The notes under the pieces: generated by a model | What the model was told of the DNA's origin: nothing | Seen by the model: the letters and a program-made list of their open reading frames with translations, nothing else | Database searches by the model: none | Shown: positions 29,627 through 50,507 of the stretch, one piece after another | Layout of the letters: each line of letters starts with the position of its first letter | How positions within the stretch are numbered: the first letter of the stretch is position 1 | Translations under genes and position numbers: made by a program | Assembly: GCA_045645365.1 (NCBI GenBank) | Contig: JAZRIR010000008.1 | Coordinates: forward strand, 8,912 to 72,911 | Length of the DNA stretch: 64,000 bases | From: Clostridia bacterium | GTDB taxonomy: Bacteria; Bacillota; Clostridia; UBA1381 | Reading direction: 5' to 3'

Positions 29627-29701
29627 TTATTTCTTATTGCCCATAAAGAACTTGTTTTTCTCGCACATTTTAGCCTGTAAATTGTTTAACGCTTCACCGA
29701 A
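29627..29701 (-). pseudogene. cotJC: cotJC-type Mn-catalase gene, C-terminal fragment (FGEALNNLQAKMCEKNKFFMGNKK*)
   Basis: The minus-strand translation continues exactly where the 43323-43656 fragment breaks (…VVHFQRFGEA|LNNLQ…). My recollection of B. subtilis CotJC ends …MRFREAVEILKEERDKKKIF. Confidence 0.85.
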
Positions 29702-29720
29702 GCTACTGTTTCAAACAAAC

Positions 29721-29755
29721 ACAGCCAAAGCCTGTTAAATTCAGGATTTGGCTGT
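29721..29755 (-). terminator. terminator of the minus-strand ATPase/Toprim operon
   Basis: acagccaaa / tttggctgt stem, followed on the minus strand by a T-rich tract, 40 nt downstream of the stop at 29795. Confidence 0.65.
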
Positions 29756-29794
29756 ATTGTATCTTTAAAATTTTGTGATTAAAATATAATGACT

Positions 29795-31039
29795 TTATAC
29801 GACACTGATGGGAATTTTTGCTCCCCATTGGTAGCATAATTCTGCTATCTCATTCCAATACTGCTGGAATTCTGGTGATAAGTTGTTTATAATGTCGAGA
29901 ATTTTGACTTCGGTTTCTTCTAATTCATAAATTTCTTTTTCAAGCGTTTCACTTGAATTTTCTAGATTTTTTATTAATTCTTTTTTTTGGTTTATATCAC
30001 TCTGTATTTCATTATTAAGGATTTTTTTATGAAATTTGGTAAAGGTGTTTCTTACCCCCGATAACAATCTTTGTTTTGGATTAGATTGTGTTGATGTACA
30101 AAATTCCTCTAAAACGGCAGCTAAAGTAGTACCACGTAAATACTTTGGAATTGAAGCGGTCAGATTGATTAAATCTTCAACAGTAAAATCTTCGGTTAAC
30201 AAATCATTTAACTGATTTCTTATATATTTTTTAACTTGGACATCATCAATTTTCAATCCACTCTTTATGTCACCATACAAATATGTTTCTTTACTCTGGT
30301 TGAATATATCTACTAGAATTGAATAGTGCTTTTTTTGGCTCGATTCTGTTTCCAAATAGTAATATATATAAGGAGGTATGAGATTCTCTCTTTCTCTAAC
30401 ATTCAGAATATGCATAGTTGTTACGTGCTCTCTAAAATATTTTTCATGAATATTCTCTAGTTCTAGTGCTGTTTTCCCTAAATTTGAACATTCGTTGACT
30501 TTATCGCTATCAGCTATAACCAAGCAAGGACTAGAATTAGATTCTAGATTTTCCAAATAAGTTTCGCTTATGTTTATTCCGCCGCCATTTATGTTTTCAA
30601 AACCTAATTCCCAGCTTAGGTTTTTTTGATTCATTATGAATTTAGTGAGAGAAGCATAAAACTTGCAATCTGATAAATCTTCACAAATTAATTTGGTTTT
30701 TTGGAGATTTGCAGAATCACTAAGAAATTTTATAGGAACATCGTAGATGTTTTTTGTTGTAGACGATAAAAGTATTTTGTCGTTGTTGCTCATAACTCTT
30801 ATATATGTATTAAAATTTTTTTTGATAGCTCCATATTGTGTGATTTTTGAAGCTAATTTTTTGAAGATTCTTTTGTTATATGAATCTAGTTGTTTGATTT
30901 TAGACAATTTTCTAAATAGATTTCTAGAAGCATAAACTATGTGCCTATTATTTATTGCACATTCCGCAATGTTTTGTAATGCTCTAATCGTCAAATCGTT
31001 TATTTCGTCTAGTATATTATCATCTAAAACTATAAGCAT
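29795..31039 (-). CDS. Toprim/DUF4435-like (OLD-type) putative nuclease partner of the upstream ATPase, with a C-terminal coiled coil
   Basis: 414 aa. Motifs in the order of OLD/DUF4435 Toprim domains: LICEDLSDCKFY (Glu motif), CLVIADSDK (DxD), HILNVRERENLIP (the …ENyl motif). It starts 6 nt after the ATPase stop. Confidence 0.5.
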   Translation of the reverse strand: MLIVLDDNILDEINDLTIRALQNIAECAINNRHIVYASRNLFRKLSKIKQLDSYNKRIFKKLASKITQYGAIKKNFNTYIRVMSNNDKILLSSTTKNIYDVPIKFLSDSANLQKTKLICEDLSDCKFYASLTKFIMNQKNLSWELGFENINGGGINISETYLENLESNSSPCLVIADSDKVNECSNLGKTALELENIHEKYFREHVTTMHILNVRERENLIPPYIYYYLETESSQKKHYSILVDIFNQSKETYLYGDIKSGLKIDDVQVKKYIRNQLNDLLTEDFTVEDLINLTASIPKYLRGTTLAAVLEEFCTSTQSNPKQRLLSGVRNTFTKFHKKILNNEIQSDINQKKELIKNLENSSETLEKEIYELEETEVKILDIINNLSPEFQQYWNEIAELCYQWGAKIPISVV

Positions 31040-31045
31040 TAAATA

Positions 31046-32638
31046 TTATGCCTCCTCAAAAAAGTCAATTGGCCATTCTTCCAAATAACCATCTTTATTA
31101 AACGCAACGTGTCTAATACAGCTTTCAAGACCTGTTGGTTGTTCAATCAACAACACATTTATACTATCTGGGCTTATATTCTTACTTTCAATCTGAAATC
31201 CAATTTGATTGATAATAGTTTCACTATGTGTTTCCAAAAAGAATTTTATATTTTTGTTGTGGGAAATGACATTCAATATTACCTTTAATAACTGTACTTG
31301 CATTTTAGGATGTAGATGCAATTCTGGCTGTTCAATAACAATTTGTACTTCATCTGAATTTTTTTTGTGTATATTTTTCCATAGAATTAATATTATTGGG
31401 AGGATTTGGGAATAACCAAATCCTGCATCTGCAATATTCGTTTCTATGTTATCATTAAGTAGTTTTACTGATACATGTTCTTCTATTATCTTTGTAGTAA
31501 TTTCAAAGCCAAAATTGTCATGTAGCCAATTGTTAAATTGAGAGAGTTCTTTTCGGCTCATACTCTGTAATATCATAGGAACGTTTTCGCCTCTAGCATC
31601 TACTTCTTGTATATTTAAACCTTGCCTTCGATAATACCGTTCAGCTGTTGCTCTAACAGGTGCAATATATTTAACGTTTTTGAAATAATTAGATAAATAA
31701 GCGTTGCAAGCATCAATTACATCTGGCATTAAAGTTTTAATGATATAAATAGATATTTGTTCTTTATGTAGTTTTATTTCTTCTAATATATCAGATATTG
31801 TTTTTTTGTTTAATTTTTTATAATTAGTAACGTCAAAAATCAAACTTATACCCTGATGTTTAGCTTTTGATAAGAAAGCTTCGATATTCTTATATTTTAG
31901 CTCAAAATTTAATTCATTTTTTAACAAGTACTCATATGTAGATATTGCATAAAAATGATTTTCGTCGGGCACCTTGCATCTATCGAAAACTTTTATAAGC
32001 AATGATATCAACTCATCTTTTAGTAAAGTTTTTTCAAGAGATTTCTCATAGTTAATCAATGCTCGCATCAGTAAATAAACAAATTCGTTATTATCTGAGT
32101 TTATTTTGGGAATAATATTACCAAATTCATCATCGTTTCCAATTTTAAATTTTTTAGTATATTTGTTATTAATATTTAAAACTGCAAAATTTGTGTTTCT
32201 ATTAAAAGCAATTTCGGTTTCAACGCCAAACACATTAATATATATCTTCTTTATTTCGTCTTTTTCGATATATATTTTTATTTTCATTTTCACACTTGCC
32301 TTTTCATTAGGCTTTATCATAAAAGGAAGAAAACCATATGCTAATTCTTTGTCAAAGTAATTTATGGTTGTACTAAAATCAAATGAAAAGCATATGGTAT
32401 CAGAATCAGGTTGAAATTTTGATTTGCTTTCATTATATCCTCCAAAATCGACATATCTACCATACCATAATATAGGTTCGGATAGCTTGGTTTCCAATGT
32501 TTGTTTGAATAGAGGGAAAACTCTCGCTAAAGTGCTTTTACCGCTACTGTTTTTTCCAACTGCAATTGTTAATGGTTTTAGTTCAATTTCACCAGTGTTT
32601 TTAAAGCATCTTAAGTTTTCAAGTTGTATTTTATCCAT
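31046..32638 (-). CDS. ABC-type (AAA_15/AAA_21-like) ATPase with a DUF3696-like C-terminus
   Basis: 530 aa with Walker A GKNSSGKST, ABC-signature/Walker B IVIEQPELHLHP, and H-loop ETHSE. The long insertion between Walker A and B is typical of OLD/AriA/GajA-class ATPases. Confidence 0.8.
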   Translation of the reverse strand: MDKIQLENLRCFKNTGEIELKPLTIAVGKNSSGKSTLARVFPLFKQTLETKLSEPILWYGRYVDFGGYNESKSKFQPDSDTICFSFDFSTTINYFDKELAYGFLPFMIKPNEKASVKMKIKIYIEKDEIKKIYINVFGVETEIAFNRNTNFAVLNINNKYTKKFKIGNDDEFGNIIPKINSDNNEFVYLLMRALINYEKSLEKTLLKDELISLLIKVFDRCKVPDENHFYAISTYEYLLKNELNFELKYKNIEAFLSKAKHQGISLIFDVTNYKKLNKKTISDILEEIKLHKEQISIYIIKTLMPDVIDACNAYLSNYFKNVKYIAPVRATAERYYRRQGLNIQEVDARGENVPMILQSMSRKELSQFNNWLHDNFGFEITTKIIEEHVSVKLLNDNIETNIADAGFGYSQILPIILILWKNIHKKNSDEVQIVIEQPELHLHPKMQVQLLKVILNVISHNKNIKFFLETHSETIINQIGFQIESKNISPDSINVLLIEQPTGLESCIRHVAFNKDGYLEEWPIDFFEEA

Positions 32639-32824
32639 AAAACAACCTCCTTGATTTTACAGCATTATATCACAAAATTCCTGAATTTTCAATATAATAT
32701 TAGAAAAATATTAATATTGTTTGTATAAATCCAATATTCTAATTATATATTATTTCTTTGAGTATGTATATAACATATTCCCGGCTTAACCGGCACATAG
32801 AAAAATGAAAGTGAGGATTTTTTA

Positions 32825-33937
32825 ATGAAAACAAACGAAAAAATAGTGTGCTCTGTATGTGGGATAGTCATAACAGAGGGAACAACAAAAAGCTTTGATG
32901 GTCAGAAAATGTGTGAGCATTGTTTTGATGAAAGGACAACAACTTGCGATAATTGCGGGGACAGAATATGGGGAGATAATGCAGAGGGCGATTCTAATTA
33001 TACATTATGCTCTCATTGTTACGAGTATAGTTATACAACTTGCGAGGAGTGCGGTAGGCTCATACACAATGAAGATGCTTTGTATGAAGATGGTGAGGAT
33101 TATCCTTATTGCAGAGATTGCTTTGAAAAGCTGAATGACAATTCAATAAAAAATTACAGTTATAAGCCTGAGCCGATTTTTTATGGCTCAGGCAATTTAT
33201 TTTATGGGGTTGAATTGGAAATAGACAAAGGCGGTGAAGATAACTTAAATGCACAAAAATTGATTGATATTGCAAATGAAAATGATGAAAGAATTTACTG
33301 TAAGCACGATGGCTCCATTAATAATGGATTTGAGATAGTGTCTCACCCCATGAGCCTTGAATATCACATCAATAATATGAATTGGCTTGATGTATTTGAA
33401 AAGGCTACTCAAATGGATTACCGCTCCCATAATACCTCTACTTGCGGTCTGCATATTCATTGTTCTCGCTCCGCTTTTGGAAAGGATTATGATGAACAGG
33501 AAAAGACTATCGGCAGAGTTGTATTCTTCGTTGAAAGACATTGGAATGAACTTGTTAAGTTTTCAAGACGCACACCTGAAAAACTTAACCACTGGGCAGC
33601 TAAATATGCGACCATATCCAATACAACAGAAGAAACTTATAAAAAGGCAAAGGATAAGCGTATGGGAAGATACGTAGCTGTTAATCTTGAAAATTATAAC
33701 ACAATAGAGTTTCGCTTGTTCAGAGGTACTCTCCGCTATAAAACATTTATTGCAACCTTACAGCTAGTTGATGAAATCTGCTACCAAGCAATTAATCTGT
33801 CGGATAAGGAAATGGAAGAATTGTCTTGGTCTGACTTTGTATCAAATATACTACCGAAAAAGTTTGAGCTTATAGAATACTTGAAATCAAAAAGGCTCTA
33901 TGTAAATGATGCCGTAATAGAAAGCGAGGAAATGTAA
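32825..33937 (+). CDS. amidoligase (glutamine-synthetase-like COOH-NH2 ligase, Amidoligase_2 family) with N-terminal multi-CxxC zinc ribbons
   Basis: 370 aa. The N-terminus has six CxxC pairs (CSVC…CEHC…CDNC…CSHC…CEEC…CRDC). The core has YGVELEI, HDGSINNGFEIVSHP, CGLHIHCS and IEFRLFRGT, as I recall for the amidoligase family described by Iyer et al. 2009. Confidence 0.75.
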   Translation: MKTNEKIVCSVCGIVITEGTTKSFDGQKMCEHCFDERTTTCDNCGDRIWGDNAEGDSNYTLCSHCYEYSYTTCEECGRLIHNEDALYEDGEDYPYCRDCFEKLNDNSIKNYSYKPEPIFYGSGNLFYGVELEIDKGGEDNLNAQKLIDIANENDERIYCKHDGSINNGFEIVSHPMSLEYHINNMNWLDVFEKATQMDYRSHNTSTCGLHIHCSRSAFGKDYDEQEKTIGRVVFFVERHWNELVKFSRRTPEKLNHWAAKYATISNTTEETYKKAKDKRMGRYVAVNLENYNTIEFRLFRGTLRYKTFIATLQLVDEICYQAINLSDKEMEELSWSDFVSNILPKKFELIEYLKSKRLYVNDAVIESEEM

Positions 33938-34846
33938 ATGTGTTGCTTATTTGGATTTTATAATTATAGCGGTCAGCCTATTAAGAATTTAAGTCATTTA
34001 ACAAATGCTCTCGCAGAGGAAGCAACGGTGAGAGGTACAGATGCAACGGGAATTGCCTATAACCATAAAGGTAAGCTTACTATACATAAAGAACCGAAAG
34101 CTGCTTTTCAGATTAATTTTAAGCATCCTGATGATATTGTTTCCGTTACAGGTCATACAAGGCATTCTACGCAAGGAAATAAAAACAAGAATTATAACAA
34201 TCACCCTTTTTCAGGACACTGCAAAAATATTAATTTTGCACTTGCACACAACGGTGTTTTAACCAACGATTCTAAACTGCGAAAGGAACTGCGATTACCT
34301 AATACAAAAATAGAAACCGACAGTTTTATTGCAGTTCAGCTTATCGAAAAGAATAAGATACTTAATAGCGAGAGTATAAAATTTATGTCGGAAAAGATAC
34401 GTGGAAGCTTCGCATTTTCGATTCTTGATAGCAACAACACTTTATGGCTTGTTCGTGGCGATAGTCCGCTATCACTTATACATATTCCGAGATACAAATT
34501 ATATGTATATGCTTCAACAGAAGAAATTCTTTATAAAGCATTAGTTGGGACAAAGCTTTTTGCAGAAATAAAGAAAGGAGCTTTTGAGGAACTTGAAATA
34601 AACTCCGGTGATATTTTTAATATATTAACTGACGGAACTATCGTTAATGATAAGTTTGATTATACAGACTATAGCTATTTCGGTCATTGCCAATGGTGGA
34701 ACTATAACACATCAAAAAAGAGTTACATTGATGATTTGAAATCTGTTGCTGCTTATCAGGGATATTCACCTGATGATGTGGATGCGTTACTACAAAATGG
34801 TTTTACTCCCGAAGAGGTTGAGGAATATCTGTATTGTATAGAATAA
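33938..34846 (+). CDS. class II (Ntn) glutamine amidotransferase-like protein
   Basis: 302 aa. It begins MCCLFGF… (Cys2 is the Ntn nucleophile), then has GTDATGIA, GHTRHSTQG and LAHNGVL motifs. The ATG abuts the amidoligase stop, which suggests translational coupling. Confidence 0.75.
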   Translation: MCCLFGFYNYSGQPIKNLSHLTNALAEEATVRGTDATGIAYNHKGKLTIHKEPKAAFQINFKHPDDIVSVTGHTRHSTQGNKNKNYNNHPFSGHCKNINFALAHNGVLTNDSKLRKELRLPNTKIETDSFIAVQLIEKNKILNSESIKFMSEKIRGSFAFSILDSNNTLWLVRGDSPLSLIHIPRYKLYVYASTEEILYKALVGTKLFAEIKKGAFEELEINSGDIFNILTDGTIVNDKFDYTDYSYFGHCQWWNYNTSKKSYIDDLKSVAAYQGYSPDDVDALLQNGFTPEEVEEYLYCIE

Positions 34847-34931
34847 TCGGAATTTTATAAGGAAGAATACAATGCATTATGCGTTTTACAATACATAGAA
34901 AAATGTATATAATTGTTTAAAAACGCAGGGG

Positions 34932-35192
34932 GTGGTTGCAATTGGTGTAGATGAGATTAATGCTTTAAATGAAGTATATAAAGAGATGGTTGACCTAATA
35001 GGCTATGACAATACTATGATACTTTATACATACTACAAAGGTCAGCAAATTACTTTCCCGATAAAGCTTTTTAAATCTGAATGTGTATGTGAAATGATTA
35101 AAAAGCAATATGATGGAACAAACGCAAAAAAATTAGCAAGAACTTATGGTTATTCAGAACGTTGGATAAAGGAATTGTTAAGAAATAAATAA
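34932..35192 (+). CDS. Mor-like small HTH transcription activator (tentative)
   Basis: 86 aa. …GQQITFPIKLF…YDGTNAKKLARTYGYSERWIKELL resembles the phage Mu Mor family. The start codon is uncertain. Confidence 0.45.
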   Translation: MVAIGVDEINALNEVYKEMVDLIGYDNTMILYTYYKGQQITFPIKLFKSECVCEMIKKQYDGTNAKKLARTYGYSERWIKELLRNK

Positions 35193-35234
35193 AATCGAAT
35201 ATTTCTGACAAAACAGTTAAAGGAGAAATTATCA

Positions 35235-35417
35235 ATGATAATTATAATAGCTTATTTAGCATTAGGCTATTGGGCAACAGGAAAGGTTGTTTACGCAAAT
35301 AAAGTTGTATTTTATACCGGATATACGTTTTTTATAAGAAAAGTTATGTGGGCTTTTTTCTTAGGATGGTTACTTATTCCAATAGCTATTTTAAAATTAC
35401 TTTTCGGAAAAAGATAA
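35235..35417 (+). CDS. small two-TM membrane protein
   Basis: 60 aa with two hydrophobic helices and a GGAG RBS upstream. Confidence 0.4.
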   Translation: MIIIIAYLALGYWATGKVVYANKVVFYTGYTFFIRKVMWAFFLGWLLIPIAILKLLFGKR

Positions 35418-35461
35418 AATTAACAAAATCAATTAAGAGCAAATAAGAAGGAGATATTAAA

Positions 35462-35848
35462 ATGGGAATTTTTGAAAATTTAAGTGACAGAGCGGTAGAA
35501 AAATTTGCAAAGAAAGAAACAATACGTGTTCCTTATGAACAAATTGTTGAACTTGTAAAGGAGGAATTTATAGCCGATGCAAATGATGAATTTTTACAAA
35601 AAGTTCTTAAGACCTCTAAAGGTGGAAATTTCTTCACAAGTAAGAAACTTGAATCAGCATCAGGGAGATATCTTTTGCATGTAGGAAATTTGCAAAGAGG
35701 AATAATTTTCGGAAAACGTAAATGTGTATGGATACAAGACAATGAAACGAATAAATTTTATCAGCTTGATAAAGACAGGTATTGGAAAAAGTTTTATAAA
35801 TCTACCGATGCAGCTATTAAGATGGAAAAAATCAATCGAAGCAGATAA
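35462..35848 (+). CDS. hypothetical protein
   Basis: 128 aa with a strong RBS (AGGAGA). I recognised no motif. Confidence 0.5.
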   Translation: MGIFENLSDRAVEKFAKKETIRVPYEQIVELVKEEFIADANDEFLQKVLKTSKGGNFFTSKKLESASGRYLLHVGNLQRGIIFGKRKCVWIQDNETNKFYQLDKDRYWKKFYKSTDAAIKMEKINRSR

Positions 35849-35914
35849 TCTAAAGCACTCCTTAAAGGTACACCTTTAGGAACAGTGAAAATTTAATAAA
35901 AACAAGACAAAAAA

Positions 35915-35981
35915 AGCGTGTATAAAGGTTCAGATGCAGTATAGGGATATGTCCCTATATTGACCGAGGTTTATACACGCT
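35915..35981. repeat. nested inverted repeats immediately upstream of the resolvase gene
   Basis: The outer 12-bp perfect inverted repeat is agcgtgtataaa (35915-35926) / tttatacacgct (35970-35981). It encloses an inner inverted repeat, tataggga (35940-35947) / tccctata (35952-35959). Confidence 0.7.
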
Positions 35982-36000
35982 TATATTTTGGGAGGTAGAT

Positions 36001-36594
36001 ATGAATAATAAGATTTTTTATTATGCACGAGTATCAAGCCGAGAACAAAATCTTGACAGACAGATTGAAGCTTTTAAAAAGCTCGGTGCAGATGAACGTG
36101 AAATTATATGTGATAAGGAAAGCGGAAAGGACTTTAACAGAAGCGGTTATCAGGCGCTTAAAAACACAATGCTTCGCAGTGGTGATACGTTGATTGTAAA
36201 ATCTCTTGACCGCCTTTCGAGGAATAAGAGTGATATAAAAACCGAGCTTCAATATTTTAAGGATAATAATATCCGTTTAAAAGTCATTGACCTGCCTACA
36301 ACGATGATTGATTTGCCCGAAGGACAGGAATGGGTGTTTGATATGGTTAATAACATCCTGATTGAAGTGCTTGGAACAATCGCAGAACAGGAACGGCAGA
36401 CTATTCGCAAACGGCAACGAGAAGGTATAGAGGCTGCTAAAGCAAAAGGTAAACATCTCGGCAGACCGAAGACTGTAAAGTCCGACAATTGGGATGAAGT
36501 TGTATCAGATTGGAAACGTGGAAACATAACAGCACGCCAAGCATACACAATGCTTGACGTTTCAAAATCCGTTTTTTATAGACTTGTTAAGTAA
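36001..36594 (+). CDS. small serine recombinase (resolvase/invertase)
   Basis: 197 aa with the catalytic motif YYARVSSREQNLDRQ, SLDRLSRN, and a C-terminal HTH. Confidence 0.9.
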   Translation: MNNKIFYYARVSSREQNLDRQIEAFKKLGADEREIICDKESGKDFNRSGYQALKNTMLRSGDTLIVKSLDRLSRNKSDIKTELQYFKDNNIRLKVIDLPTTMIDLPEGQEWVFDMVNNILIEVLGTIAEQERQTIRKRQREGIEAAKAKGKHLGRPKTVKSDNWDEVVSDWKRGNITARQAYTMLDVSKSVFYRLVK

Positions 36595-36784
36595 ACAGAA
36601 ATAATCATTAGAAGCTGATGTCATGTTTTGTTTTGTTGACTTATGCTAAAATTGAGAGTATAATTAGTATGGTATAAATGTGTAATTTCATTTCACGGTA
36701 ATCTCTTTTAGTCATTCGCACATCATGAAAGAGAAAAACTAATTGCTATTTGTGCTGGTACGGAGCAGCAGAATGGAGATTAAT

Positions 36785-38032
36785 ATGAAAATAGAAATTA
36801 AAAAAGAATTTAATATCCTTTCAAGAAAACAATTTGACGTAATGGTTGAAAAATTAAAAAGAGAAAAATCAAATGAAATAAGTAATACAAGCATAGAATA
36901 TATAAAAGAGCAAATCAAAAAGATATTTAAAGAATGTTGTATAGCTGCAAAGATTGCTTTCTCAGTTGAACAAACTAATGAAATAATAAATTTGATATTA
37001 TTAACTTACATTGATTTAATTATTGAAAATGATAAAAGTACATTTGAATCTATATTTCAATATGTTAGAAATATAGAACCCGAGAATTCCGATATTATAA
37101 ATGAAATAACAAAAAAATTAAAATACGGAATAAACAATTACAAATTGAATGTTTCAATATATAATCAATATGCAAAAACGAATGATTTTTTGTATTCACG
37201 TGGTAAATATCATACAAATCACGAAAGAGATAAAAAAGTTTTTAGCACAAGAATCCCTCATAATTTAATTAAGTTGGAATTTGCTGAAGCATTTTCTAAT
37301 GGATGTCTACTAATATATGAATTGATGTACAAAAACAAAAATCCATTTACAACAACACATAGAGATAAAAATAATATATTATTTTCTGCATATCAAAATT
37401 TGTGTTGCTATATGGATGAAATATGTAAATGCAGCACATCAAAAGAAATAGTATTAAAAAATGTATTTTTTTGGAAGTTTGAAAAAACATATAGGTTTGT
37501 TTTCATTTCAATTTTAGCAAAGTATATTTTTGAACAGAATATAGAAGCGTCAGCATTAAAACTACCAAAGTTATTATATAATTACTATTTTCCGTATCAT
37601 TTTAAGGATGATAACACCGGTGTTTTTTGCGGTTCGCCTATTATTTCATATTATGAGGAAATAATTAAATACTCATTTGAAACAAAAAATACTGTTTTAG
37701 ATGTTGAAGCTCTTGAAATACAAAGAGAAATGATGGCATATACATTATCAATACTTTGTGTGTTATTTCCTCCAACCGAAACAAGGTCACATAAATTATT
37801 TTATAATAGAGAAACAAATAAATTTGATTTTGATGCTGTTGGGGATTTCTTGATTAAAGACTGCAAAATACCAGTATTATTATCAGAATATAAGGAGCTT
37901 ATTGAGGAAAATATTAATAATAATTTATATGTAAAGACTATCCAAGAGCTTTTACTAAATAATGATGTTGTTGAACAAAAAATATTGAGTAATTCAGCAA
38001 AGAAAATGAAAAGCTTTAAAAAAACAAATTAA
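36785..38032 (+). CDS. hypothetical protein (415 aa), no recognisable domain
   Basis: Long ORF with a GGAGA RBS before the ATG at 36785 and its own terminator. Asn/Lys/Ile-rich. Confidence 0.6.
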   Translation: MKIEIKKEFNILSRKQFDVMVEKLKREKSNEISNTSIEYIKEQIKKIFKECCIAAKIAFSVEQTNEIINLILLTYIDLIIENDKSTFESIFQYVRNIEPENSDIINEITKKLKYGINNYKLNVSIYNQYAKTNDFLYSRGKYHTNHERDKKVFSTRIPHNLIKLEFAEAFSNGCLLIYELMYKNKNPFTTTHRDKNNILFSAYQNLCCYMDEICKCSTSKEIVLKNVFFWKFEKTYRFVFISILAKYIFEQNIEASALKLPKLLYNYYFPYHFKDDNTGVFCGSPIISYYEEIIKYSFETKNTVLDVEALEIQREMMAYTLSILCVLFPPTETRSHKLFYNRETNKFDFDAVGDFLIKDCKIPVLLSEYKELIEENINNNLYVKTIQELLLNNDVVEQKILSNSAKKMKSFKKTN

Positions 38033-38043
38033 TAAACAATTAA

Positions 38044-38085
38044 ATCAGACTGTCTCGCATAAAGCCGGGACAGTCTGATTTTTAT
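38044..38085 (+). terminator. rho-independent terminator
   Basis: atcagactgtc / gacagtctgat stem followed by T5. Confidence 0.8.
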
Positions 38086-40134: not shown

Positions 40135-40154
40135 TAAAAAAGGAAGTGATTCCA

Positions 40155-42543: not shown

Positions 42544-42545
42544 CA

Positions 42546-42583
42546 AAAATCTGCTAATCTATTGATTTAAAGCAGATTTTTTG
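42546..42583 (+). terminator. rho-independent terminator after the LSR gene
   Basis: aaatctgct / agcagattt stem followed by a T-run. Confidence 0.75.
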
Positions 42584-42622
42584 TTATAATATAAAAAAAG
42601 AGAGTTGAAAGGAGCGGAATTT

Positions 42623-43247: not shown

Positions 43248-43280
43248 GTGCTGGAAATTTAATTTCAGCACCTTTGATAT
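43246..43280 (+). terminator. terminator hairpin at the right end of element A
   Basis: ggtgctggaaatt / aatttcagcacc stem followed by a T-rich tract. Confidence 0.65.
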
Positions 43281-43322
43281 TTATAGAAAATCTGTTTGAA
43301 TTAGTCAGTTTTGCTTCACCAA

Positions 43323-43656
43323 ATCTCTGGAAATGCACAACCTCTCGTTGTCTTAAGAATTTAATGACTTCATTTACATCAGGGTCATCTGAAAGTCTTA
43401 AGATGTTGTCATAGACAGCTCGTGCTTTTTGCTCTGCAGCGAGATTTTCATAGAGATTAGTAAGCGGGTCGCCTGTTACAGCTATCGATGCTGCGTTAAA
43501 AGGAGTTCCCTGTGCGTTTTGTGGGAATACACTTGCGCCGTTGTCTGCGTAATATTCCGCACTCTTCATATTCAGCCATTCTTTTGGTGTTGCACCGTCT
43601 GCTAGTTGCTGAACTAGTGTTCCGACCATTTCAAGATGCCCGAGTTCCTCAGTTCC
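43323..43656 (-). pseudogene. cotJC: cotJC-type Mn-catalase gene, central fragment
   Basis: Minus-strand translation: GTEELGHLEMVGTLVQQL…TGDPLTNLYENLAAEQKARAVYDNILRLSDDPDVNEVIKFLRQREVVHFQRFGEA. This is collinear with my recollection of CotJC (…TDIGTEEFAHLEM…KGDPIADLYEDIAAEEKARATY…SDDPDLNDSLRFLREREIVH…). The listed ORF 43210-43629 is this fragment read through into element A. Confidence 0.9.
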
Positions 43657-43925
43657 TGTGTTCTATACTATTTTGCTCTGTTAAAAATTTTTAAAAATTT
43701 TATTTTCAGCAATAGCACAGAAAAGCCCTATTTTGAAAAATATTTTTGAAAAAAGTTTTATATTGGACATAAATTTAAACAGTGTGTGTTAATTAATAAT
43801 AGAGAATGCTATATATACTAGTTTAAAATATTGATACTACTAAATAATTGATAACAACCTTAAAGCATACGGGGATTATGCCCTTACGGTATTTTTGAAG
43901 GGTGGGTGGTTGGGTTGTACCTTTG

Positions 43926-44717
43926 CTAAATTTCATTTATCTCTAATATATTGTCATAAGGTATAATTGCATCAGGTTTCAAGTAAGCAAATATTTCCCC
44001 ACAAGCACAATCTGATATTACAGACAATGACATATCAATCAGATTTTCAGCAATAGTCTTTCCTTCATTAGGGAAACTATATTCTGCAAAATCACTTATT
44101 TTAGCATAAAATTTTATTCCATATCCTTTACAAGATTTATACCATTTTCGAGATAAATCAGTTTTCAGTAGTTCATCTATATTATACAATATTTCAGGAC
44201 GTAGATGAACACATCCCAAATAATCATTTATATCTTCAATATAAAAGAAACAACTAACTTGATTGTCGTAATAAATTTTTCTTGCAATATGAGTGACTGG
44301 ATTATCTGCTCTATAATTTACATATTCTATATTATATTCGTTTCCGTTTGCTATCATTGATTTTTTCTCTATATTAAAATTAATGCCAAAAGTATTCAAA
44401 AAATTATTTAATGGCGTATTATGAGATAGCGCAAATTGTAAATCTCTTAAACCAAATTTTTTTATTGATTGGCATTGGTCAAAATTAGATGTGTAATGAA
44501 TAGCACATAACAAGACGTTTTTAGTATCTAAATCTTCTAATTGGATATTAAAAGTTCTACATAAATTATTAACATTCACTTTTGTTGCATCGGTACAAAA
44601 GTCAGTTTGTATAATATTGTCATTGATAAACTCAATAATATTTTCTTTTGAAATCCCTGTAAATTGAGATAAAAATTCTAATGCGTTGTCTTTATTTGCT
44701 ATATCAAAGTATATCAT
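43926..44717 (-). CDS. hypothetical protein (263 aa)
   Basis: Long ORF with an AAGGTGA RBS. It is the last gene of the minus-strand cluster. I recognised no motif. Confidence 0.55.
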   Translation of the reverse strand: MIYFDIANKDNALEFLSQFTGISKENIIEFINDNIIQTDFCTDATKVNVNNLCRTFNIQLEDLDTKNVLLCAIHYTSNFDQCQSIKKFGLRDLQFALSHNTPLNNFLNTFGINFNIEKKSMIANGNEYNIEYVNYRADNPVTHIARKIYYDNQVSCFFYIEDINDYLGCVHLRPEILYNIDELLKTDLSRKWYKSCKGYGIKFYAKISDFAEYSFPNEGKTIAENLIDMSLSVISDCACGEIFAYLKPDAIIPYDNILEINEI

Positions 44718-44740
44718 AATGTCACCTTATTAAATAAATC

Positions 44741-44784
44741 TGACACCAAAGACTCGTCTATTATAAGGCGAGTTTTTGGTGTCA
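44741..44784 (-). other. 16-bp stem-loop between the DUF2752 gene and the 263-aa gene
   Basis: tgacaccaaagactcg / cgagtttttggtgtca, with one G-U pair and a 12-nt loop. No clear U-tract follows on the minus strand. Confidence 0.6.
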
Positions 44785-44794
44785 TCAATATCCA

Positions 44795-45136
44795 TTAGCT
44801 TTTATTCTTTCTAATTTTTTTCATAACAATAATTAGCACATCAATACTGATTAAACAAAGAATAAAAAGAACAACAACTATATACTTATTACTTTGAAAG
44901 GCAGAAACAAAGTCAAAATGCAACAAATAATTTATTGCTGTTCTCATTCCACAAAAAATACAAGAATAATCTTCGTTGTCACACAAAAATCTAAACGGAG
45001 CAAAGAATTGTATAAACATTCCATTAGCAAAAAAAACTATATATACGATAATTCTTATTTCCTCAAATAGTGTGATGTTGTAATTATTGCATTTTTTCAC
45101 AATCTTTAACTCCTGAAACAAACTTTGTCCCAGCAA
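44795..45136 (-). CDS. DUF2752-like small membrane protein
   Basis: A TM helix followed by C…CIFCGMRTAINYLLHFDFVSAFQSN, matching the CxxCGxTR…A…N signature as I recall it for DUF2752. The start is uncertain, because the listed start overlaps the upstream gene by 53 nt. Confidence 0.55.
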   Translation of the reverse strand: MLGQSLFQELKIVKKCNNYNITLFEEIRIIVYIVFFANGMFIQFFAPFRFLCDNEDYSCIFCGMRTAINYLLHFDFVSAFQSNKYIVVVLFILCLISIDVLIIVMKKIRKNKS

Positions 45137-45626
45137 TTATTTGTAAAATGCCTGGAACAAATAAAATAATACCTAACCCACAAGTTGCAACAATACCTGC
45201 TGCACAAGTAAAGAAAAGGATGGAAATAGCCACAATTGAACCAATTAAATAGATATAAGATAGTGTTTTCTTAGTTTTAATATTTTTTGTGAAAAATAAA
45301 ACTAATCCTATTATAAAAACAGCAATACCAATTAAAACTGCAATAAACAATCCTTGTGAAGACACATCAGCGCCTACACTAATGCTTAGACCTCCATCAT
45401 TTGTTTCTTCACTTTGTGAAAGGGTATCTACTATGTAGCTGCTTATAGCCAAAAGAAAAGGCACACAAAACGCAATAATATTTAACAAATGAGCAGAAAA
45501 CATTTTTTTCTTGCCGTTGTCGTTTGCAATAGTGGTCTCCTTATGTAACACATAACCGCAATTTATACACGATTGAGCTTGGTCAGATATTTCTTTTCCG
45601 CATTCAGGACAATTAATCAAAGCCAT
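45084..45626 (-). CDS. zinc-ribbon membrane protein
   Basis: 180 aa with an N-terminal zinc ribbon (CPECGKEISDQAQSCINCG) followed by four hydrophobic helices. Confidence 0.65.
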   Translation of the reverse strand: MALINCPECGKEISDQAQSCINCGYVLHKETTIANDNGKKKMFSAHLLNIIAFCVPFLLAISSYIVDTLSQSEETNDGGLSISVGADVSSQGLFIAVLIGIAVFIIGLVLFFTKNIKTKKTLSYIYLIGSIVAISILFFTCAAGIVATCGLGIILFVPGILQIIAGTKFVSGVKDCEKMQ

Positions 45627-45759
45627 AATTTTACACTCCTATCAAAATTATATAATCATTATATCACAAACTAACATAATAGTCAATTATTGTGGGAAAA
45701 TTTAGAATTTTATGTCGAAAGTTTACTATTATATAATTTAAAATATTTATGTCATGGGC

Positions 45760-45788
45760 GTTGACTATAGTATTTAATGGAGGTATAA
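45760..45788 (+). promoter_or_regulatory. near-consensus sigma-A promoter
   Basis: TTGACT (45760-45765), a 17-nt spacer, then TATAAT (45783-45788). Confidence 0.65.
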
Positions 45789-45794
45789 TATATA

Positions 45795-45989
45795 TAAGCA
45801 AGTTATATGGGTATATGATTTGCTTGGTTTTATGGTATATAGTGCAACGGCACGGCTTGAATTATTATTTAAGTTGGTGGCGGTGGCGGTGGTTTTCTTT
45901 TGCAGGTGCTAAAGAGATTAAATAATGAATAGAGCAATAGCCAGTATTGGCTTTAAGTGTCGTTACAAATGGTAACGGCACTTTTTTTG
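45795..45989 (+). ncRNA. transcription unit of about 190 nt: either a terminated leader or small RNA, or a 32-aa peptide mini-gene (45814-45912)
   Basis: It lies between the promoter above and an intrinsic terminator (gtgtcgttac / gtaacggcac, 45957-45981, plus T7). It contains the ORF MICLVLWYISATARLELLFKLVAVAVVFFCRC. The next gene's RBS follows the terminator. Confidence 0.4.
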
Positions 45990-46021
45990 TGTAGAAATAT
46001 TTTTATAAGGGGGTAACGGAT

Positions 46022-46528
46022 ATGTTACATAGTAGTTATTTTAATAGTGTTTGGAAAAAGAACAAGGGTGTTAAGGACGTTAGGTTTAAATTTGCAACGG
46101 TGGCGGTATTTGTCAGAAGGGTACTTGATAAAATGGGGTTATTTAGTTGTGCTGATGTTGAGAAAGATATTACGTGTGCTATGAAACAAGACTTTGATGA
46201 GTTTGATATTACAGTTGATAAGAAAAATGCACAAGTAGTATTAGAGGCAGATATTTGGGGTATTGGTACACTTGATAACGAAAGAAGAAAAGCACAGGTG
46301 CTTAAACGTATAAATGAGTATAACCAACACCTGCAGTTCGGGTATTGTATGCTGATAGATAGCAGGGTTATATATCGTATTAGAGAGAGCATCTATCTGG
46401 GTGCTGATGATGCGGAAGATTTAGCAGTAGCAGAAAGGCTAATCAGACGCTTTGAAATGGATGTCAAGTATGTTGATGATAAAATCTTTGACAGAGCAGT
46501 TGACAATCTCAATACCTTGACTAAATGA
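46022..46528 (+). CDS. hypothetical protein (168 aa)
   Basis: ORF with a GGGGG RBS. I recognised no confident motif. Confidence 0.5.
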   Translation: MLHSSYFNSVWKKNKGVKDVRFKFATVAVFVRRVLDKMGLFSCADVEKDITCAMKQDFDEFDITVDKKNAQVVLEADIWGIGTLDNERRKAQVLKRINEYNQHLQFGYCMLIDSRVIYRIRESIYLGADDAEDLAVAERLIRRFEMDVKYVDDKIFDRAVDNLNTLTK

Positions 46529-46741
46529 GATAGAAAAAGTGTCATCAGCAGGCGTTGCAAAAATGGGTATCTGGTTTCAACCAGATACAAAAATTGTGTT
46601 TTGAGCCATTTGAAATATGGAATTCATCGGCACAGAATAGGTTGAGTATATAAAAGTGTTACGTTATAAAATTTCAAAATTTTAGATTTTTAGGTGTAGT
46701 CAAAAAATCAGACTTTACAGGACAGAAAGGCGGTTGATTAG

Positions 46742-47278
46742 ATGAAATTTGCATATATGCTTGAAAATACAAATCGTACATACAAGATTGATAATCAGCC
46801 GCTTATGGCTGAAATTGTCAGGAATGATATTCCAGAAGAAAAGATTTACATAGATGCAGTTGGAGACGGTAAAAGACCAGAGTTTAATTTGTTGCTGAAT
46901 GACATTCAGGGTGGAGACATCCTTTACATTCGTAGCATCGGAGATTTATCGGATACAACAGGCGCTATTTTATATATATTAAGTAGTTTGGGTGAAATGG
47001 GTATTGTTGTCAGGTCGGTATGTGAGCCACAGTATGAGTACGGCAATCTCGTTATTCTTGGGTATGGGGTTAAGGTTGTCAGGGAGCTTTCAGAGAAGAA
47101 AAGAAAGTTGGGTATCTTACAGGCGGCATCTGCTGGCAAGATGGGGAGAAAAATTGATGAAGATACCAGAGATATGGTTGTCAGGCTGAAAAATTCGGGG
47201 TTTACGGTGGAAGAAATCACAAATCTGTGTAATATAAGCCGTAGCACCTATTACAGATATGTAAAAAATGCAGATTAA
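46742..47278 (+). CDS. resolvase-like protein lacking the catalytic serine (probably inactive; HTH retained)
   Basis: 178 aa. FAYMLENTNR stands where resolvases have Y-x-R-V-S-[ST]-x-x-Q, and SIGDLSD replaces DRLxR. The RPEFNLLL…GGDIL framework and the C-terminal HTH (ISRSTYYRYV) are retained. Confidence 0.6.
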   Translation: MKFAYMLENTNRTYKIDNQPLMAEIVRNDIPEEKIYIDAVGDGKRPEFNLLLNDIQGGDILYIRSIGDLSDTTGAILYILSSLGEMGIVVRSVCEPQYEYGNLVILGYGVKVVRELSEKKRKLGILQAASAGKMGRKIDEDTRDMVVRLKNSGFTVEEITNLCNISRSTYYRYVKNAD

Positions 47279-47572
47279 TTCAACCTTATTTATCTTTTGT
47301 CGTTAAATAGTGGTATCAGAAAATTAAGATTAAAGAAATCTGCAAATATTTTATTTTGACATCAAGAAAATGTTGAAATTACGCCATTTTGAGATTTTAA
47401 AATTTTCATCGTAATTTTGTGTTGAGATGACAAGGTTTTTATAAATTTTAATAAAATTTATGGTTAAGAGAGTTAAAAAAGAGAGTTCATATATTTTAAG
47501 TTATGGGTACACCAATCCTATACAGGTAACTTACAGGCTTGGATGTATTCATTAAATGTGTTCATAAGGTAG

Positions 47573-48172
47573 GTGTTAGATATGGAATACGGATACGTTC
47601 GTGTGTCAAGTAAAAGTCAGGCAGAAAATAATTCTCTGGCAGAGCAAGAGCAGACTATATTAGAAAAGTATCCTTCGGCAGAGATATACAGAGAAGTTTA
47701 TACTGCTGCAAAGGACTTTAATAATAGACAGGTGTTTAATGACCTAATTGACAGGTTGACAGATGGGAATTGTTTGATAGTTTGCAAGATGGATAGATTT
47801 TGCCGTAATGTGCGCGAAGGACTTAATATTATAGATGCCCTTTTATCAAAGGGCGTTACGGTGCATATTCTTAATCTGGGTGTTATTGATAATTCGCCTA
47901 TTGGCAGATTGTTATATACTGTTCTGCTTGCGTTTGCAGAGTTTGAAAGAAATATGATTGTAGAACGCACCAAAGCAGGCAGAGAGTTGGCAAGACAAAA
48001 GGATGGTTACACAGAAGGCAGACCAAAGAAATATAGCAAGACACAATTAAGTCTGGCTATGCAGTTGTTGGAAAATCACTCATACAAACAAGTTTCATCG
48101 ATGACAGGTATCTCAAAGAGCACACTACAAAGAGAAAAGAAAAGGACAGTTGACGAAAATAATAGGACATAA
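47573..48172 (+). CDS. small serine recombinase (resolvase/invertase)
   Basis: Motifs [20 protein letters not shown] and KMDRFCRN, plus a C-terminal HTH (ISKSTLQR). The likely true start is the ATG at 47582. Confidence 0.88.
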
Positions 48173-48284
48173 ATTAAAAAATTTTAACTAAAATCTCAAA
48201 AAATTTACTGATGAGAACAAAACGGACTAAAATGCACACAGTTACCTTAATTTAAGTATCAATTCGTAAGGGAGGGTACTTAAA

Positions 48285-48503
48285 ATGGGTAGTGCATTAA
48301 GACAACCTGATAGCGCATATACATCTATTGGTGGTGTTATGCCTATGGGTAATAAAGTTAATGTTGTTCTTTCAGATAAAGAGAAAGAGAACTTAAATCA
48401 TAGTCTTAAATCTTCTGTATATAAAGAATTATATAAAAAGTCTCTTATTACAGATAGAGAGTTAAGATTATTGTTAGAAAAAGCGCCTAAATTTTTAAAT
48501 TAG
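48285..48503 (+). CDS. small hypothetical protein upstream of the LSR gene
   Basis: 72 aa with a GGGAGGG RBS. A GC-rich stem-loop follows (ggagtggt/accactcc, 48517-48549). Confidence 0.45.
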   Translation: MGSALRQPDSAYTSIGGVMPMGNKVNVVLSDKEKENLNHSLKSSVYKELYKKSLITDRELRLLLEKAPKFLN

Positions 48504-48587
48504 GGGCTGAGATATCGGAGTGGTTGCGTTATAATACAGTGACCACTCCACAATACAAAAAGAAAAATTAGTTAGGAGAAGAGATTT

Positions 48588-50270
48588 ATGATTGATTTGA
48601 AAAATTTAAGTATTAGTAATGTAGTAGAAGTTAGTCCTTTTAATGTATTAAATGATGCAAAAGTGTTGCGCGCAGCAGCCTATGCAAGAATCAGTACAGA
48701 TAAGGATGACCAAGCCAATTCCTTTGAAAGTCAAGTTAAGTATTTTACAGAATTTATAGAAAAACAAGATAATTGGCAGTTGGTTAAGATATATAGTGAT
48801 GAAGGTATTTCGGGAACGTCAACTAAAAATCGTGTGGGTTTTAACTCAATGATTGATGATGTAATGGCAGGTAAAATTGATTTTATTATAACAAAAGAAG
48901 TTTCACGTTTTGCAAGAAATACAGTTGATACATTGCAGGTAACAAGGGACCTAAAAGAAAAGGGTGTTGGGGTTTACTTTATGCTTGATAATATCAATAC
49001 TTTGGACAAAGATGGCGAACTGCGCTTGACGCTTATGGCATCTCTCGCACAAGAAGAAAGTAGAAAGACATCTGAACGTGTTAAGTGGGGGCAGAAAAGA
49101 CAGATGGAAAAAGGTGTTGTCTTTGGTCGTAGCCTGCTTGGGTATAAGGTGGTTGAAGGTAAGTTATATCTGGTTGAAGATGAAGCAGAAATTGTGAGAA
49201 AAATATTTCACAAATATCTTGTTGAAGGTAAAGGTACTCATATAATAGCAAGAGAACTTAAAGAAGAAGGCATCAAGCCTTATGACCCTGATGGGCGTGC
49301 GAAATATAAGAATGATTGGTCAAACACACAGATTTTGCGTGTTCTTCACAATGAGAAATATGTTGGAGATTTGGTGCAAAAAAAGACTTGGACACAAAAC
49401 TTTTTAGACCACAAGAAAAGGTATAACAGGGATAACGAAGAGATGGTTAGAATTGAAAACCATCATCCAGAGATAGCGATTATCTCAAGAGAAATGTGGG
49501 ATGCCACGCAGGCAGAGTTACAACGCCGTACTACAACAGCGGAACAGAAGTCCAAACATAGCAATCGCTATTGGGCATCTGGTAAGATTTTCTGTGGTGT
49601 ATGTGGTGAGCGCTTTGTTAACAAAATCAAGAAAACAAGTGCAGGAACATCAAGGGCTTGGAATTGTATGAACCATATCAAACCACACGCCTTTCGTGAA
49701 GTAGAATGTTCTATGTCGGAGTGGGCAAGTGATAGGAGTATGAAGAATATTGTCCTTTATATTCTTAATATGTTAGTTGAGAACAGAAATGAACTCAAAG
49801 CAGAGATTGTAAAAGAGATTTCACAGTTAAATCTTGAAGAAAAGGTAAAGACAACAGATGACATACAGGACAAGATTGATAGATTAGAGCAGAAAAAATT
49901 AAAGTTGCTTGATATTAGATTGGCAGAAGAAATCTCAAAGGAAGATTTTAAGAAAAAGAATACACAAATTGAAACAGAGATTTCAAATTTACAGGTACAA
50001 TTAGAAGAAATCAGAGAACTTGCTACAACAAAACAACGTCAGCAAGACAGAATGGATGGTATCATTAAAGAGATTGATAGAGTGTTGCAGTTAGATAGTG
50101 AAGATTTGGATGAACTGTTGGGTACAGTTACACAGAGTATCACAGTTTATGAAGGTCATACAGTTGTGGTAAGACTTAAGGATGTTCCATTTAATTTCAA
50201 GGTGGTTTATAAGTCAACAGGTAAGTTAGATACATATAGGACAGAGATTTTAAGTCTTGAAGTGGTATAA
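48588..50270 (+). CDS. large serine recombinase (integrase of element B)
   Basis: 560 aa with AAAYARISTDKDDQANSFESQ (catalytic Ser), KEVSRFARN, a recombinase domain, a zinc ribbon (CGVCG…CMNH) and a long C-terminal coiled coil. Confidence 0.93.
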   Translation: MIDLKNLSISNVVEVSPFNVLNDAKVLRAAAYARISTDKDDQANSFESQVKYFTEFIEKQDNWQLVKIYSDEGISGTSTKNRVGFNSMIDDVMAGKIDFIITKEVSRFARNTVDTLQVTRDLKEKGVGVYFMLDNINTLDKDGELRLTLMASLAQEESRKTSERVKWGQKRQMEKGVVFGRSLLGYKVVEGKLYLVEDEAEIVRKIFHKYLVEGKGTHIIARELKEEGIKPYDPDGRAKYKNDWSNTQILRVLHNEKYVGDLVQKKTWTQNFLDHKKRYNRDNEEMVRIENHHPEIAIISREMWDATQAELQRRTTTAEQKSKHSNRYWASGKIFCGVCGERFVNKIKKTSAGTSRAWNCMNHIKPHAFREVECSMSEWASDRSMKNIVLYILNMLVENRNELKAEIVKEISQLNLEEKVKTTDDIQDKIDRLEQKKLKLLDIRLAEEISKEDFKKKNTQIETEISNLQVQLEEIRELATTKQRQQDRMDGIIKEIDRVLQLDSEDLDELLGTVTQSITVYEGHTVVVRLKDVPFNFKVVYKSTGKLDTYRTEILSLEVV

Positions 50271-50345
50271 AGAAAATGGCAAAGCATACTGATTTCAGTA
50301 GGCTTTGCCTATTCTGGTATAAAGGGGCAAAATCATCGCGGATAG

Positions 50346-50507
50346 ACCAATATCGGTTAGCAATCCCTTTGAAATATCATCAGGCATCATATATCTTTGA
50401 GAAAGGTATCTTAATGATGCACCTAATTCGCCGTGAGGACCACCGTACCAAAATGTTTGAGTATAGAAAAAATGGTAACTATTTATTCTTAAAAAACTTA
50501 ATATTTG
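50346..50507 (-). pseudogene. cotJC: cotJC-type Mn-catalase gene, N-proximal fragment (no start codon present)
   Basis: Minus-strand translation: …YGGPHGELGASLRYLSQRYMMPDDISKGLLTDIG. This matches my recollection of CotJC …QYGGADGELAAALRYLNQRYTIPDKVIGLLTDIG. Similarity fades upstream of about 50450, and no Met or RBS precedes it. Confidence 0.85.

Follow-up and report, generated by a model that had tools for sequence, protein, structure and literature searches.

The window analysed here, a 64,000-nucleotide stretch of contig JAZRIR010000008.1 from an uncultured gut Clostridia bacterium, carries on its minus strand one cotJC gene, coding for a manganese catalase of the spore-coat type, that is laid out in three consecutive pieces. 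Two complete islands, elements 1 and 2, lie between the pieces, and a third, element 3, takes the place of the start of the gene. The pieces, called A, B and C in the order of the coding sequence (CDS), were delimited from their translated stretches and from a reading of the junctions (Table 1). Piece B begins with AACTGAGGAA directly after ...ACAGG, and its 3' end reads ...TTT GGT GAA GC. Joining in silico at a GG core (50348/47 with 43656/55) and at an 8-bp core, GGTGAAGC (43320-13 with 29698-91), restores the reading frame exactly. The rejoined product of 168 amino acids matches the Pfam family Mn_catalase (PF05067) with an E value of 6.7e-44 and 150 bits (cut-off 27 bits), and it aligns to intact CotJC proteins of 196-197 amino acids collinearly, without a gap and over 100% of its length, at 89-91% identity. 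In this alignment every invariant CotJC column is preserved. The predicted attB junctions of the uninterrupted gene read ...GATATTGG/AACTGAGG... (attB1) and ...TTTGGTGAAGC/GTTAAAC... (attB2), the slash marking the break here and below.

An earlier note on this DNA, made from the sequence alone, had proposed one CotJC-type gene in three collinear pieces whose frame is restored by removal of the intervening blocks. Both proposals hold: the family search and the search for intact orthologues, which it had asked for, gave a collinear match of the joined pieces to one catalase, and intact orthologues were found. Its translations of all three stretches stand as well, and only the limits had to be moved. 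Piece A is trimmed to 50447-50347, the 20 codons upstream (50507-50448) being an open frame of element 3, and pieces B and C now extend over 43654-43313 and 29698-29627. A CotJC sequence of Bacillus subtilis, which served solely as a search probe of the window, matched 43662-43312 (E = 1e-35) and 50447-50346 (E = 3e-9), again collinearly. Judged from the sequence, the three pieces are one cotJC gene, in an arrangement far beyond chance.

A break at the start of the gene had also been claimed, and it is indeed there: alignment to intact proteins places it at ...ITQ/YGGP, at about residue 28. The 5' piece is absent from the window; neither cotJC codons 1 to about 28 nor cotJA or cotJB were found within the 64 kb. 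At locus L001, which has an intact orthologue, cotJC stands third in an operon, after cotJA and cotJB. In B. subtilis it is established that cotJ is expressed in the mother cell.

The three islands occupy three sites in cotJC, which we call s1 (element 1), s2 (element 2) and s3 (element 3). Elements 1 and 2 each carry, as the earlier note had stated, a large serine recombinase gene near the right end; both genes are intact, and that of recombinase 1 ends 76 bp from the attachment (att) junction. The islands had been described as stacked; in the sense of nested this does not apply, as they are neighbours, each at an attB site of its own. As reconstructed, the attP of element 1 is dyad-symmetric (GCAAAAT...ATAGA-ACACAGG-TCTAT...ATTTTGC), with 12 of 20 symmetric positions in attP1 versus 6 of 20 in attB1. 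This symmetry is as expected for the site of a serine integrase, and recombination at it is predicted.

Table 1. Features of the split cotJC locus; positions are those of the window.
Feature	Position	Strand	Evidence and remarks
cotJC piece A	50347..50447	-	YGGPHGELGASLRYLSQRYMMPDDISKGLLTDIG; 3' end ...ACC GAT ATT GG, then element DNA
cotJC piece B	43313..43654	-	TEELGHLEMVG...HFQRFGEA; spans GG core to GGTGAAGC core
cotJC piece C	29627..29698	-	...GEALNNLQAKMCEKNKFFMGNKK, then stop TAA; 8-bp core GGTGAAGC at 29691-29698, rest 29690-29627
Element 1, complete	43655..50346		6.7-kb non-phage island at s1 (TDIG/TEE codons); crossover dinucleotide GG
Large serine recombinase 1	48588..50270	+	560 amino acids; Ser motif YARIST; Pfam Resolvase + Recombinase + Zn_ribbon_recom
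72-amino-acid open reading frame (ORF)	48285..48503	+	directly 5' of recombinase 1; motif IYKELYxKxLITDxQLxxLL
Element 1 conserved module	46022..48172	+	168-amino-acid ORF; degenerate resolvase with helix-turn-helix (HTH) (46742-47278); small serine resolvase (47573-48172); Pfam
Element 1 variable cargo	43926..45626	-	263-amino-acid protein without family match; zinc-ribbon membrane-type protein
Element 2, complete	29699..43312		13.6-kb non-phage island at s2 (RFGEA codons); 8-bp direct repeat GGTGAAGC at both ends
Large serine recombinase 2	41023..42543	+	506 amino acids; catalytic Ser motif YARKS; Pfam Resolvase + Recombinase + Zn_ribbon_recom
233-amino-acid ORF	40110..40811	+	directly 5' of recombinase 2; adjoins the recombinase in 56 of 80 related loci (tblastn co-occurrence)
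MNT (nucleotidyltransferase) + HepT (HEPN RNase) toxin-antitoxin pair	42605..43247	+	between recombinase 2 and att site; Pfam Polbeta/NTP_transf_2, HepT-like
AAA_15/AAA_21 ATPase + 414-amino-acid partner	29795..32638	-	ATPase 31046-32638, partner 29795-31039; Pfam
Amidoligase-like protein + class-II glutamine amidotransferase	32825..34846	+	Pfam Amidoligase_2, LIM, GATase_6/7
Small serine resolvase/invertase	36001..36594	+	Pfam Resolvase E 4.3e-30
Element 3, partial	50448..64000		>13.5 kb, leaves the window; at s3 (QYGGP codons); Pfam
Element 3 RepA_N	50587-51453		
Element 3 ParB	51453-52349		
Element 3 TnpV	52409-52774		
Element 3 DUF6809 gene			between TnpV and the DUF3990 + HTH pair
Element 3 DUF3990 + HTH pair	53980-55282		
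Element 3 type I restriction-modification (R-M) system	55298-60329	+	hsdR 55298-57826; fused hsdM-S 57807-60329 (840 amino acids)
Element 3, two HEPN proteins	60283-63195	+	MAE_28990-like, LA2681-like
spoIIAA, spoIIAB, sigF-like sigma factor (host)	28116..29595	+	Pfam STAS, HATPase_c_2, Sigma70_r2/r3/r4
G+C-rich hairpin, then T run	29590..29626		between cotJC and sigF stops; sequence reading: aaacagtgtcggaattttccgacactgtttt

The same positions are used again and again in other species. The comparison covered about 180 related loci (L numbers). Among them are 80 genome loci (one genome per species) with a relative of recombinase 1 and, from metagenomes, 80 loci with a relative of recombinase 2; both sets were searched with an intact CotJC. 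Of the 80 recombinase-1 relatives, about 70 (45-99% identity, from about 70 species of Clostridia) adjoin a cotJC fragment at s1; the hosts include Lachnospiraceae, Oscillospiraceae, Butyricicoccus, Agathobaculum, Roseburia, Lacrimispora, Caldicoprobacter, Peptococcaceae and many other Clostridia. The 5' piece ends at the same nucleotide, ...ACN GAY ATH GG/, in more than 50 loci, and the 3' piece always starts after ...RGG/ with NACNGARGAR. Since about 70 of 80 relatives are found at one nucleotide, recombinase 1 belongs to a broad lineage that is dedicated to one position in cotJC. At s2, a cotJC piece with the end ...TTY GGN GAA GC/ lies at a distance of 0.1-5 kb from each of about 27 recombinase-2 relatives (54-79% identity), and the element arm that follows this piece is like that in the window.

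Site s3 recurs although the queries did not select for it (L002, L025, L056, L070, L184). The breaks in L056, L070 and L025 fall within CAG TAC GGN GGN CC, with cores of 6-12 bp, and the large serine recombinase there is of a third type. When CotJC instead of a recombinase was the anchor of the search, 'truncated' homologues of 169-172 amino acids came up that are s3 insertions, with a recombinase 40 bp upstream in the case of P0017. A fourth site, s4, unoccupied in the window, lies in the AAE codons of AAEQKAR (AAE/QKAR; ...GCA GCA GA/) and is used in 13 loci (L122 at 3471-3602, L124-L126, L136, L141, L143, L145, L148, L154, L156, L158 and L161), where another serine recombinase is adjacent and s2 is usually occupied as well. 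In a histogram, the end points of the cotJC fragments peak sharply at residues 28-34, 57-66, 132-136 and 176.

More than 30 loci have two or three sites occupied at once: s4 together with s2 in 13 loci, s1 with s2 in 4 loci, and s3 with s1 in at least 8 genome loci and 7 IMG/VR contigs; Lacrimispora saccharolytica An817 (L025) has a triple split. All four sites are in the four most conserved motifs of CotJC, QYGGP, TDIG-TEE, AAEQKAR and HFQRFGEA, which presumably carry the metal ligands of manganese catalase. On a 43.6-kb IMG/VR contig (L170:1934-11432) the s3 neighbour of a cotJC 25-62 fragment is a tailed prophage with endolysin, tail fibre and Dit, so cotJC is host to true phages as well as to non-phage islands. 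Each position is reused across species by a recombinase lineage of its own, which makes cotJC a multi-site landing pad. Of the two options raised by the earlier note, the integration hotspot is the one that is directly supported by the comparison, with the same three positions and a fourth in dozens of species, related recombinases and repeated multiple occupancy. We are highly confident of the structural reading, one gene split by islands at a hotspot.

Two variations on this arrangement were seen. In six loci with relatives of recombinase 1 at 46-50% identity (L026, L033, L038, L045, L046 and L047; e.g. L046:11593-12003) the recombinase adjoins the 3' cotJC piece, which starts there at residue 59/60 on the same strand; the recombinase gene is thus at the opposite end of the element. 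Locus L082 (4120-4180) has a relative of recombinase 2 (79% identity) with an s2-type arm and the core GCTTCACC, flanked by sequence other than cotJC. Either this junction represents a secondary site, or a further element may lie next to it.

What the related elements have in common is confined to the neighbourhood of the recombinase: only recombinase-proximal ORFs are conserved, the 72-amino-acid ORF in 18 loci, down to about 47% recombinase identity, and the 233-amino-acid ORF in 56. Nineteen fully bounded s1 elements of 3.3-10.3 kb gave 66 protein clusters, mostly singletons, with a cargo that includes AbiE, MazF, Fic, type I R-M, PADLOC candidate systems, ATP-binding cassette transporters and surface proteins with leucine-rich repeats. 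Recombinase similarity does not track that of the hosts: species with cotJC N-pieces of only about 60% identity can share recombinases at 99-99.8%, and the correlation over all loci is low (Spearman rho 0.17); vertical co-divergence of element and host was rejected on these grounds. Over its right-hand 4.7 kb, element 1 has 93% identity to L002, a locus from another species in which the cotJC 3' piece is only 52% identical. A real mismatch between the two cotJC pieces of L002 was considered and rejected, residues 29-64 being generally more conserved. Taken together, these comparisons indicate that the elements spread between species by horizontal transfer, inserting at the same position every time, and that their cargo is modular.

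The elements of the window are not prophages. Neither Pfam nor PHROG gave a match to phage capsid, tail, terminase or lysis genes in elements 1 and 2 or in as much of element 3 as is visible. The closest phage homologue of recombinase 1 is just 42% identical; a prophage identity was therefore rejected. Likewise, no relaxase/Mob or type IV secretion genes were seen among the scanned ORFs of elements 1 and 2 and of the incomplete element 3. The cotJC fragments themselves are in good order. Reading frames are intact in 53 of 53 N-pieces and in effectively all C-pieces, and cotJA/cotJB are kept upstream in 65 related split loci. In view of the recent mobility of the elements, this intactness is compatible with selection for reconstitution of the gene and is no proof of it.

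The 72-amino-acid ORF in front of recombinase 1 had no match in Pfam, PHROG or PADLOC. By analogy to CD1234, the recombination directionality factor of 72 amino acids encoded by skin(Cd) (PMC5025042), it is a candidate for such a factor. Between this ORF and recombinase 1, at 48504-48587, the sequence can form a hairpin that looks stable (GGAGTGGT...ACCACTCC; its loop contains TATAAT) and that could be a terminator or an attenuator of recombinase expression. The 233-amino-acid ORF in front of recombinase 2, equally without a match in Pfam, PHROGs or PADLOC, is a candidate for an accessory protein or a directionality factor; its AlphaFold2 model, made from the single sequence, was unusable (predicted local distance difference test, pLDDT, 39.6).

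Elements 1-3 are all within the CDS of a sporulation gene; removal of elements 1 and 2 restores its frame, and each of these two has its own recombinase near one end. The closest architectural analogue is gin in gerE of Bacillus cereus ATCC 10987, with the large serine recombinase GirC and the directionality factor GirX (PMC5595907). Like gin, the cotJC elements are small non-prophage islands with a large serine recombinase and extra small resolvases in a short mother-cell sporulation CDS that can be reconstituted in frame. Unlike gin, they are in another gene, have unrelated recombinases and reside there three at a time, and excision during sporulation, demonstrated for gin, is predicted here. 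Skin in sigK (SpoIVCA in B. subtilis; CD1231 with the 72-amino-acid CD1234 in Clostridioides difficile; PMC5025042, bioRxiv 10.1101/2022.02.25.481979) resembles our elements in that the recombinase alone is conserved and the cargo is variable, in a small ORF near the recombinase as plausible directionality factor and in the use of one conserved site across species. However, skin is derived from a prophage, whereas the window elements are without phage genes; it interrupts a regulator and gates sigma-K activity, whereas cotJC codes for a coat enzyme; and, in the parts of the literature that were accessible, it is described with one site and one element per gene. SPbeta in spsM (SprA/SprB; PMC4191935, PMC5499854) is a further case in which a large serine recombinase mediates insertion into a spore-surface gene of the late mother cell that is non-essential for viability, and reconstitution by precise excision would be a likeness to it. 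SPbeta is an active 134-kb phage, whereas at cotJC only some s3 occupants look like prophages (L170), and none in the window does.

Insertions in cotJC as such have been mentioned before. Abe et al. 2013 is cited in bioRxiv 10.1101/2021.11.22.469490 for an element-interrupted cotJC, and bioRxiv 10.1101/2022.02.25.481979 mentions a skin-like element in cotJC of Laceyella sacchari. These mentions are single sentences on single insertions, phage-like, transposon-like or skin-like. In the searchable literature, which does not cover Abe et al. 2013 itself, we found no definition of a cotJC attB, no use of several sites, no dedicated recombinase lineages and no multiple occupancy. Tn4451/Tn4453 (large serine recombinase TnpX, TnpV, TnpY) are likewise small islands of Firmicutes that bear a large serine recombinase and accessory resolvases, and TnpV is present in element 3; those are mobilisable transposons, whereas no Mob/relaxase gene was seen among the ORFs scanned here. 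The targets of TnpX are loosely defined, and TnpX excises without a directionality factor. In SCCmec arrays (CcrAB) at orfX, too, several elements are gathered at one chromosomal gene. SCC elements stand in tandem at a single attB at the end of orfX, which is not disrupted, rather than at several sites inside a CDS. Thus, the kind of element is known (the intervening elements skin, SPbeta, vfbin, vrin, gin and yin), and what is new relative to the literature searched is the multi-site, multi-element use of one gene.

How the elements got there, and what becomes of them, is best explained by three independent mobile islands, each of which was inserted by site-specific recombination at its own attB within the 0.6-kb cotJC. 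With attB in conserved motifs, the recombinases would probably be able to act in a broad range of hosts. Every element would be excised precisely by its own recombinase, probably with the adjacent conserved small ORF as directionality factor, most likely in the terminally differentiated mother cell; cotJC would be rebuilt when needed and the spore genome would retain the islands. For the gene described here this would require three independent excisions and the 5' piece beyond the window. Excision in the mother cell is proposed in analogy to skin, SPbeta, vfbin, vrin, gin and yin, and all experimentally studied intervening elements in mother-cell sporulation genes do excise at sporulation (PMC5025042, PMC4191935, PMC5595907, PMC10747680). 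We consider this explanation as a whole to be likely, and give its link of excision to sporulation an even chance. The further generalization that cotJC is a four-motif 'multi-socket' gene, with a dedicated recombinase lineage for each attB and up to 3-4 islands, including defence cargo and prophages, all of which would be excised in the mother cell in separate, developmentally timed events and retained in the spore, is tentative and should be taken as a possibility that is rather unlikely to be true.

Several observations weigh against the explanation preferred here. No attP1 or attP2 junction was present in a viral contig collection in an exact-pattern search, and no convincing sigma-E or sigma-K promoter was seen 5' of the candidate directionality factor or of the recombinases; the upstream regions of the 72-amino-acid ORF from 15 loci, when aligned, have conserved blocks, none of which is confidently a sigma-E or sigma-K promoter. 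The protein search gave no intact allele more than 91% identical to the cotJC of the window. Neither the 5' cotJC piece nor element 3's recombinase is in the window, so complete rebuilding is not demonstrable from it. The nearest subgroup of recombinase-2 relatives, from human gut at 74-75% identity (L084-L109), shows neither cotJC nor an s2-type arm in the 4-5.5 kb downstream, and retains the 233-amino-acid partner ORF (e.g. L096:10001-17086); either their att site is farther off or they have another target. Finally, mutants of C. difficile in cotJC-type catalases are mildly affected, as cited in PMC11222575, so a lasting inactivation of cotJC may be tolerated.

Some of these observations are what one would expect if cotJC were a 'safe harbour', that is, if the motifs offered attB sites in a dispensable gene in which a permanent knockout is tolerated, with no regulated excision and a null allele as the outcome. 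The missing junctions and promoters and the mild phenotype all fit, and so does the presence of catalase paralogues in some Clostridia (PMC11222575) and of additional paralogue-like matches, such as residues 13-188 in L056. The intact pieces, moreover, would need no selection and are explicable by insertion that is recent, given the horizontal mobility of the elements, and three simultaneous excisions in each mother cell are demanding. Nevertheless, among more than 80 pieces from many species there is no decayed fragment, intact genes are present for the recombinases as well as for the conserved ORFs that accompany them, and the tested elements in mother-cell genes cited above all excise. We therefore regard a permanent knockout as possible, yet unlikely, and prefer the excisable islands.

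A second alternative is that the host has domesticated the elements as a switch: retained and immobile, they would time or gate cotJC by stepwise excision, as skin does for sigK. The insertion in a mother-cell CDS and the recombinase at the element's margin are indeed as in skin (bioRxiv 10.1101/2022.02.25.481979). Against this, near-identical recombinases in distant hosts and genome-specific cargo argue for active mobility, and the product of cotJC is a structural or enzymatic coat protein and no regulator. Occupancy also differs among close relatives, cotJC being intact in P0001, P0002 and P0004 and broken at s3 only in P0017 and P0006. Such a switch is improbable. A chimeric metagenome assembly or remnants of separate paralogues, which come to mind as the window is probably from a metagenome-assembled genome (MAG), with a 100%-identical recombinase (P0121) on a 79.9-kb NCBI contig, and its closest relatives are MAGs, are highly improbable in view of pieces that are non-overlapping, collinear, in frame and equally (about 90%) similar to single intact proteins, of junctions that coincide with att cores beside recombinase genes, and of the same junctions in independent assemblies and in the isolates Lacrimispora saccharolytica An817, Roseburia sp. 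1XD42-69 and Lachnospiraceae JLR.KK009. The latter two are loci L070 and L079; Bacterium D16-51 (L056) and Caldicoprobacter algeriensis TH7C1 (L033) are further carriers in culture.

The repair of sporulation genes by excision in the mother cell is a classic programmed DNA rearrangement in bacteria. The principle is familiar, and the cases in the literature searched have one element in one gene; unexpected is the multi-element use of one 0.6-kb gene, with four docking sites that have their own recombinase families and are often multiply occupied, across many Clostridia from the gut and the environment. If excision of the islands is linked to sporulation, cotJC would be a case of multi-step gene reconstitution, and islands could occupy a CDS at little cost to the host. 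The locus also yields several pairs of recombinase and attB with well-defined natural sites, makes cotJC a place to seek defence islands and prophages in Clostridia, and accounts for many 'truncated' cotJC annotations in MAGs.

The remaining genes of the elements are mainly cargo. In element 1, the module from 46022 to 48172 is common to L002, L005, L020, L013 and others, and neither of the two genes in 43926..45626 was found in related elements. Recombinase 2 belongs to a large family with relatives that are up to 95% identical. The ATPase of element 2 and its partner match the PADLOC models PDC-M55A (E = 1.2e-49) and PDC-M55B (E = 2.2e-5), and the ATPase also matches the NsnB, AriA and GajA models; the two genes are a candidate anti-phage defence pair carried as cargo. 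The amidoligase-like protein has a cysteine-rich N-terminal zinc-finger region with a weak LIM match, and the pair that it forms with the amidotransferase had no match in PADLOC. Further genes of element 2 are a Mor-like gene and a helicase.

The window ends inside element 3, and the recombinase of this element is not in the visible part. Its end arm of about 45 bp (50449-50495) is present in L181 (P0006) at the same cotJC codon, and position ~50448 is thus the true end of the element. The DUF3990-HTH pair is also common to both (89% nucleotide identity). In L181 a tyrosine-type integrase gene (Phage_integrase, 2979-4283) is located 3.7 kb from the junction and may belong to a nested element or be the island's own recombinase. 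In nucleotide sequence, the hsdR/hsdM genes of element 3 have 81% identity to cargo that L048 carries in an element at s1, so cargo modules move between elements with different sites.

On the other side of the locus, the stop codon of cotJC is faced by a convergent spoIIAA-spoIIAB-sigF run, which identifies the host as a low-GC endospore former. The hairpin between the two stop codons is probably a bidirectional terminator, as far as its sequence tells. Farther away, at 5700-20497 on the plus strand, the window has ordinary host genes, namely those of a V-type ATPase operon and, after it, genes for glycogen synthase, phosphorylase and an enzyme of the debranching type.

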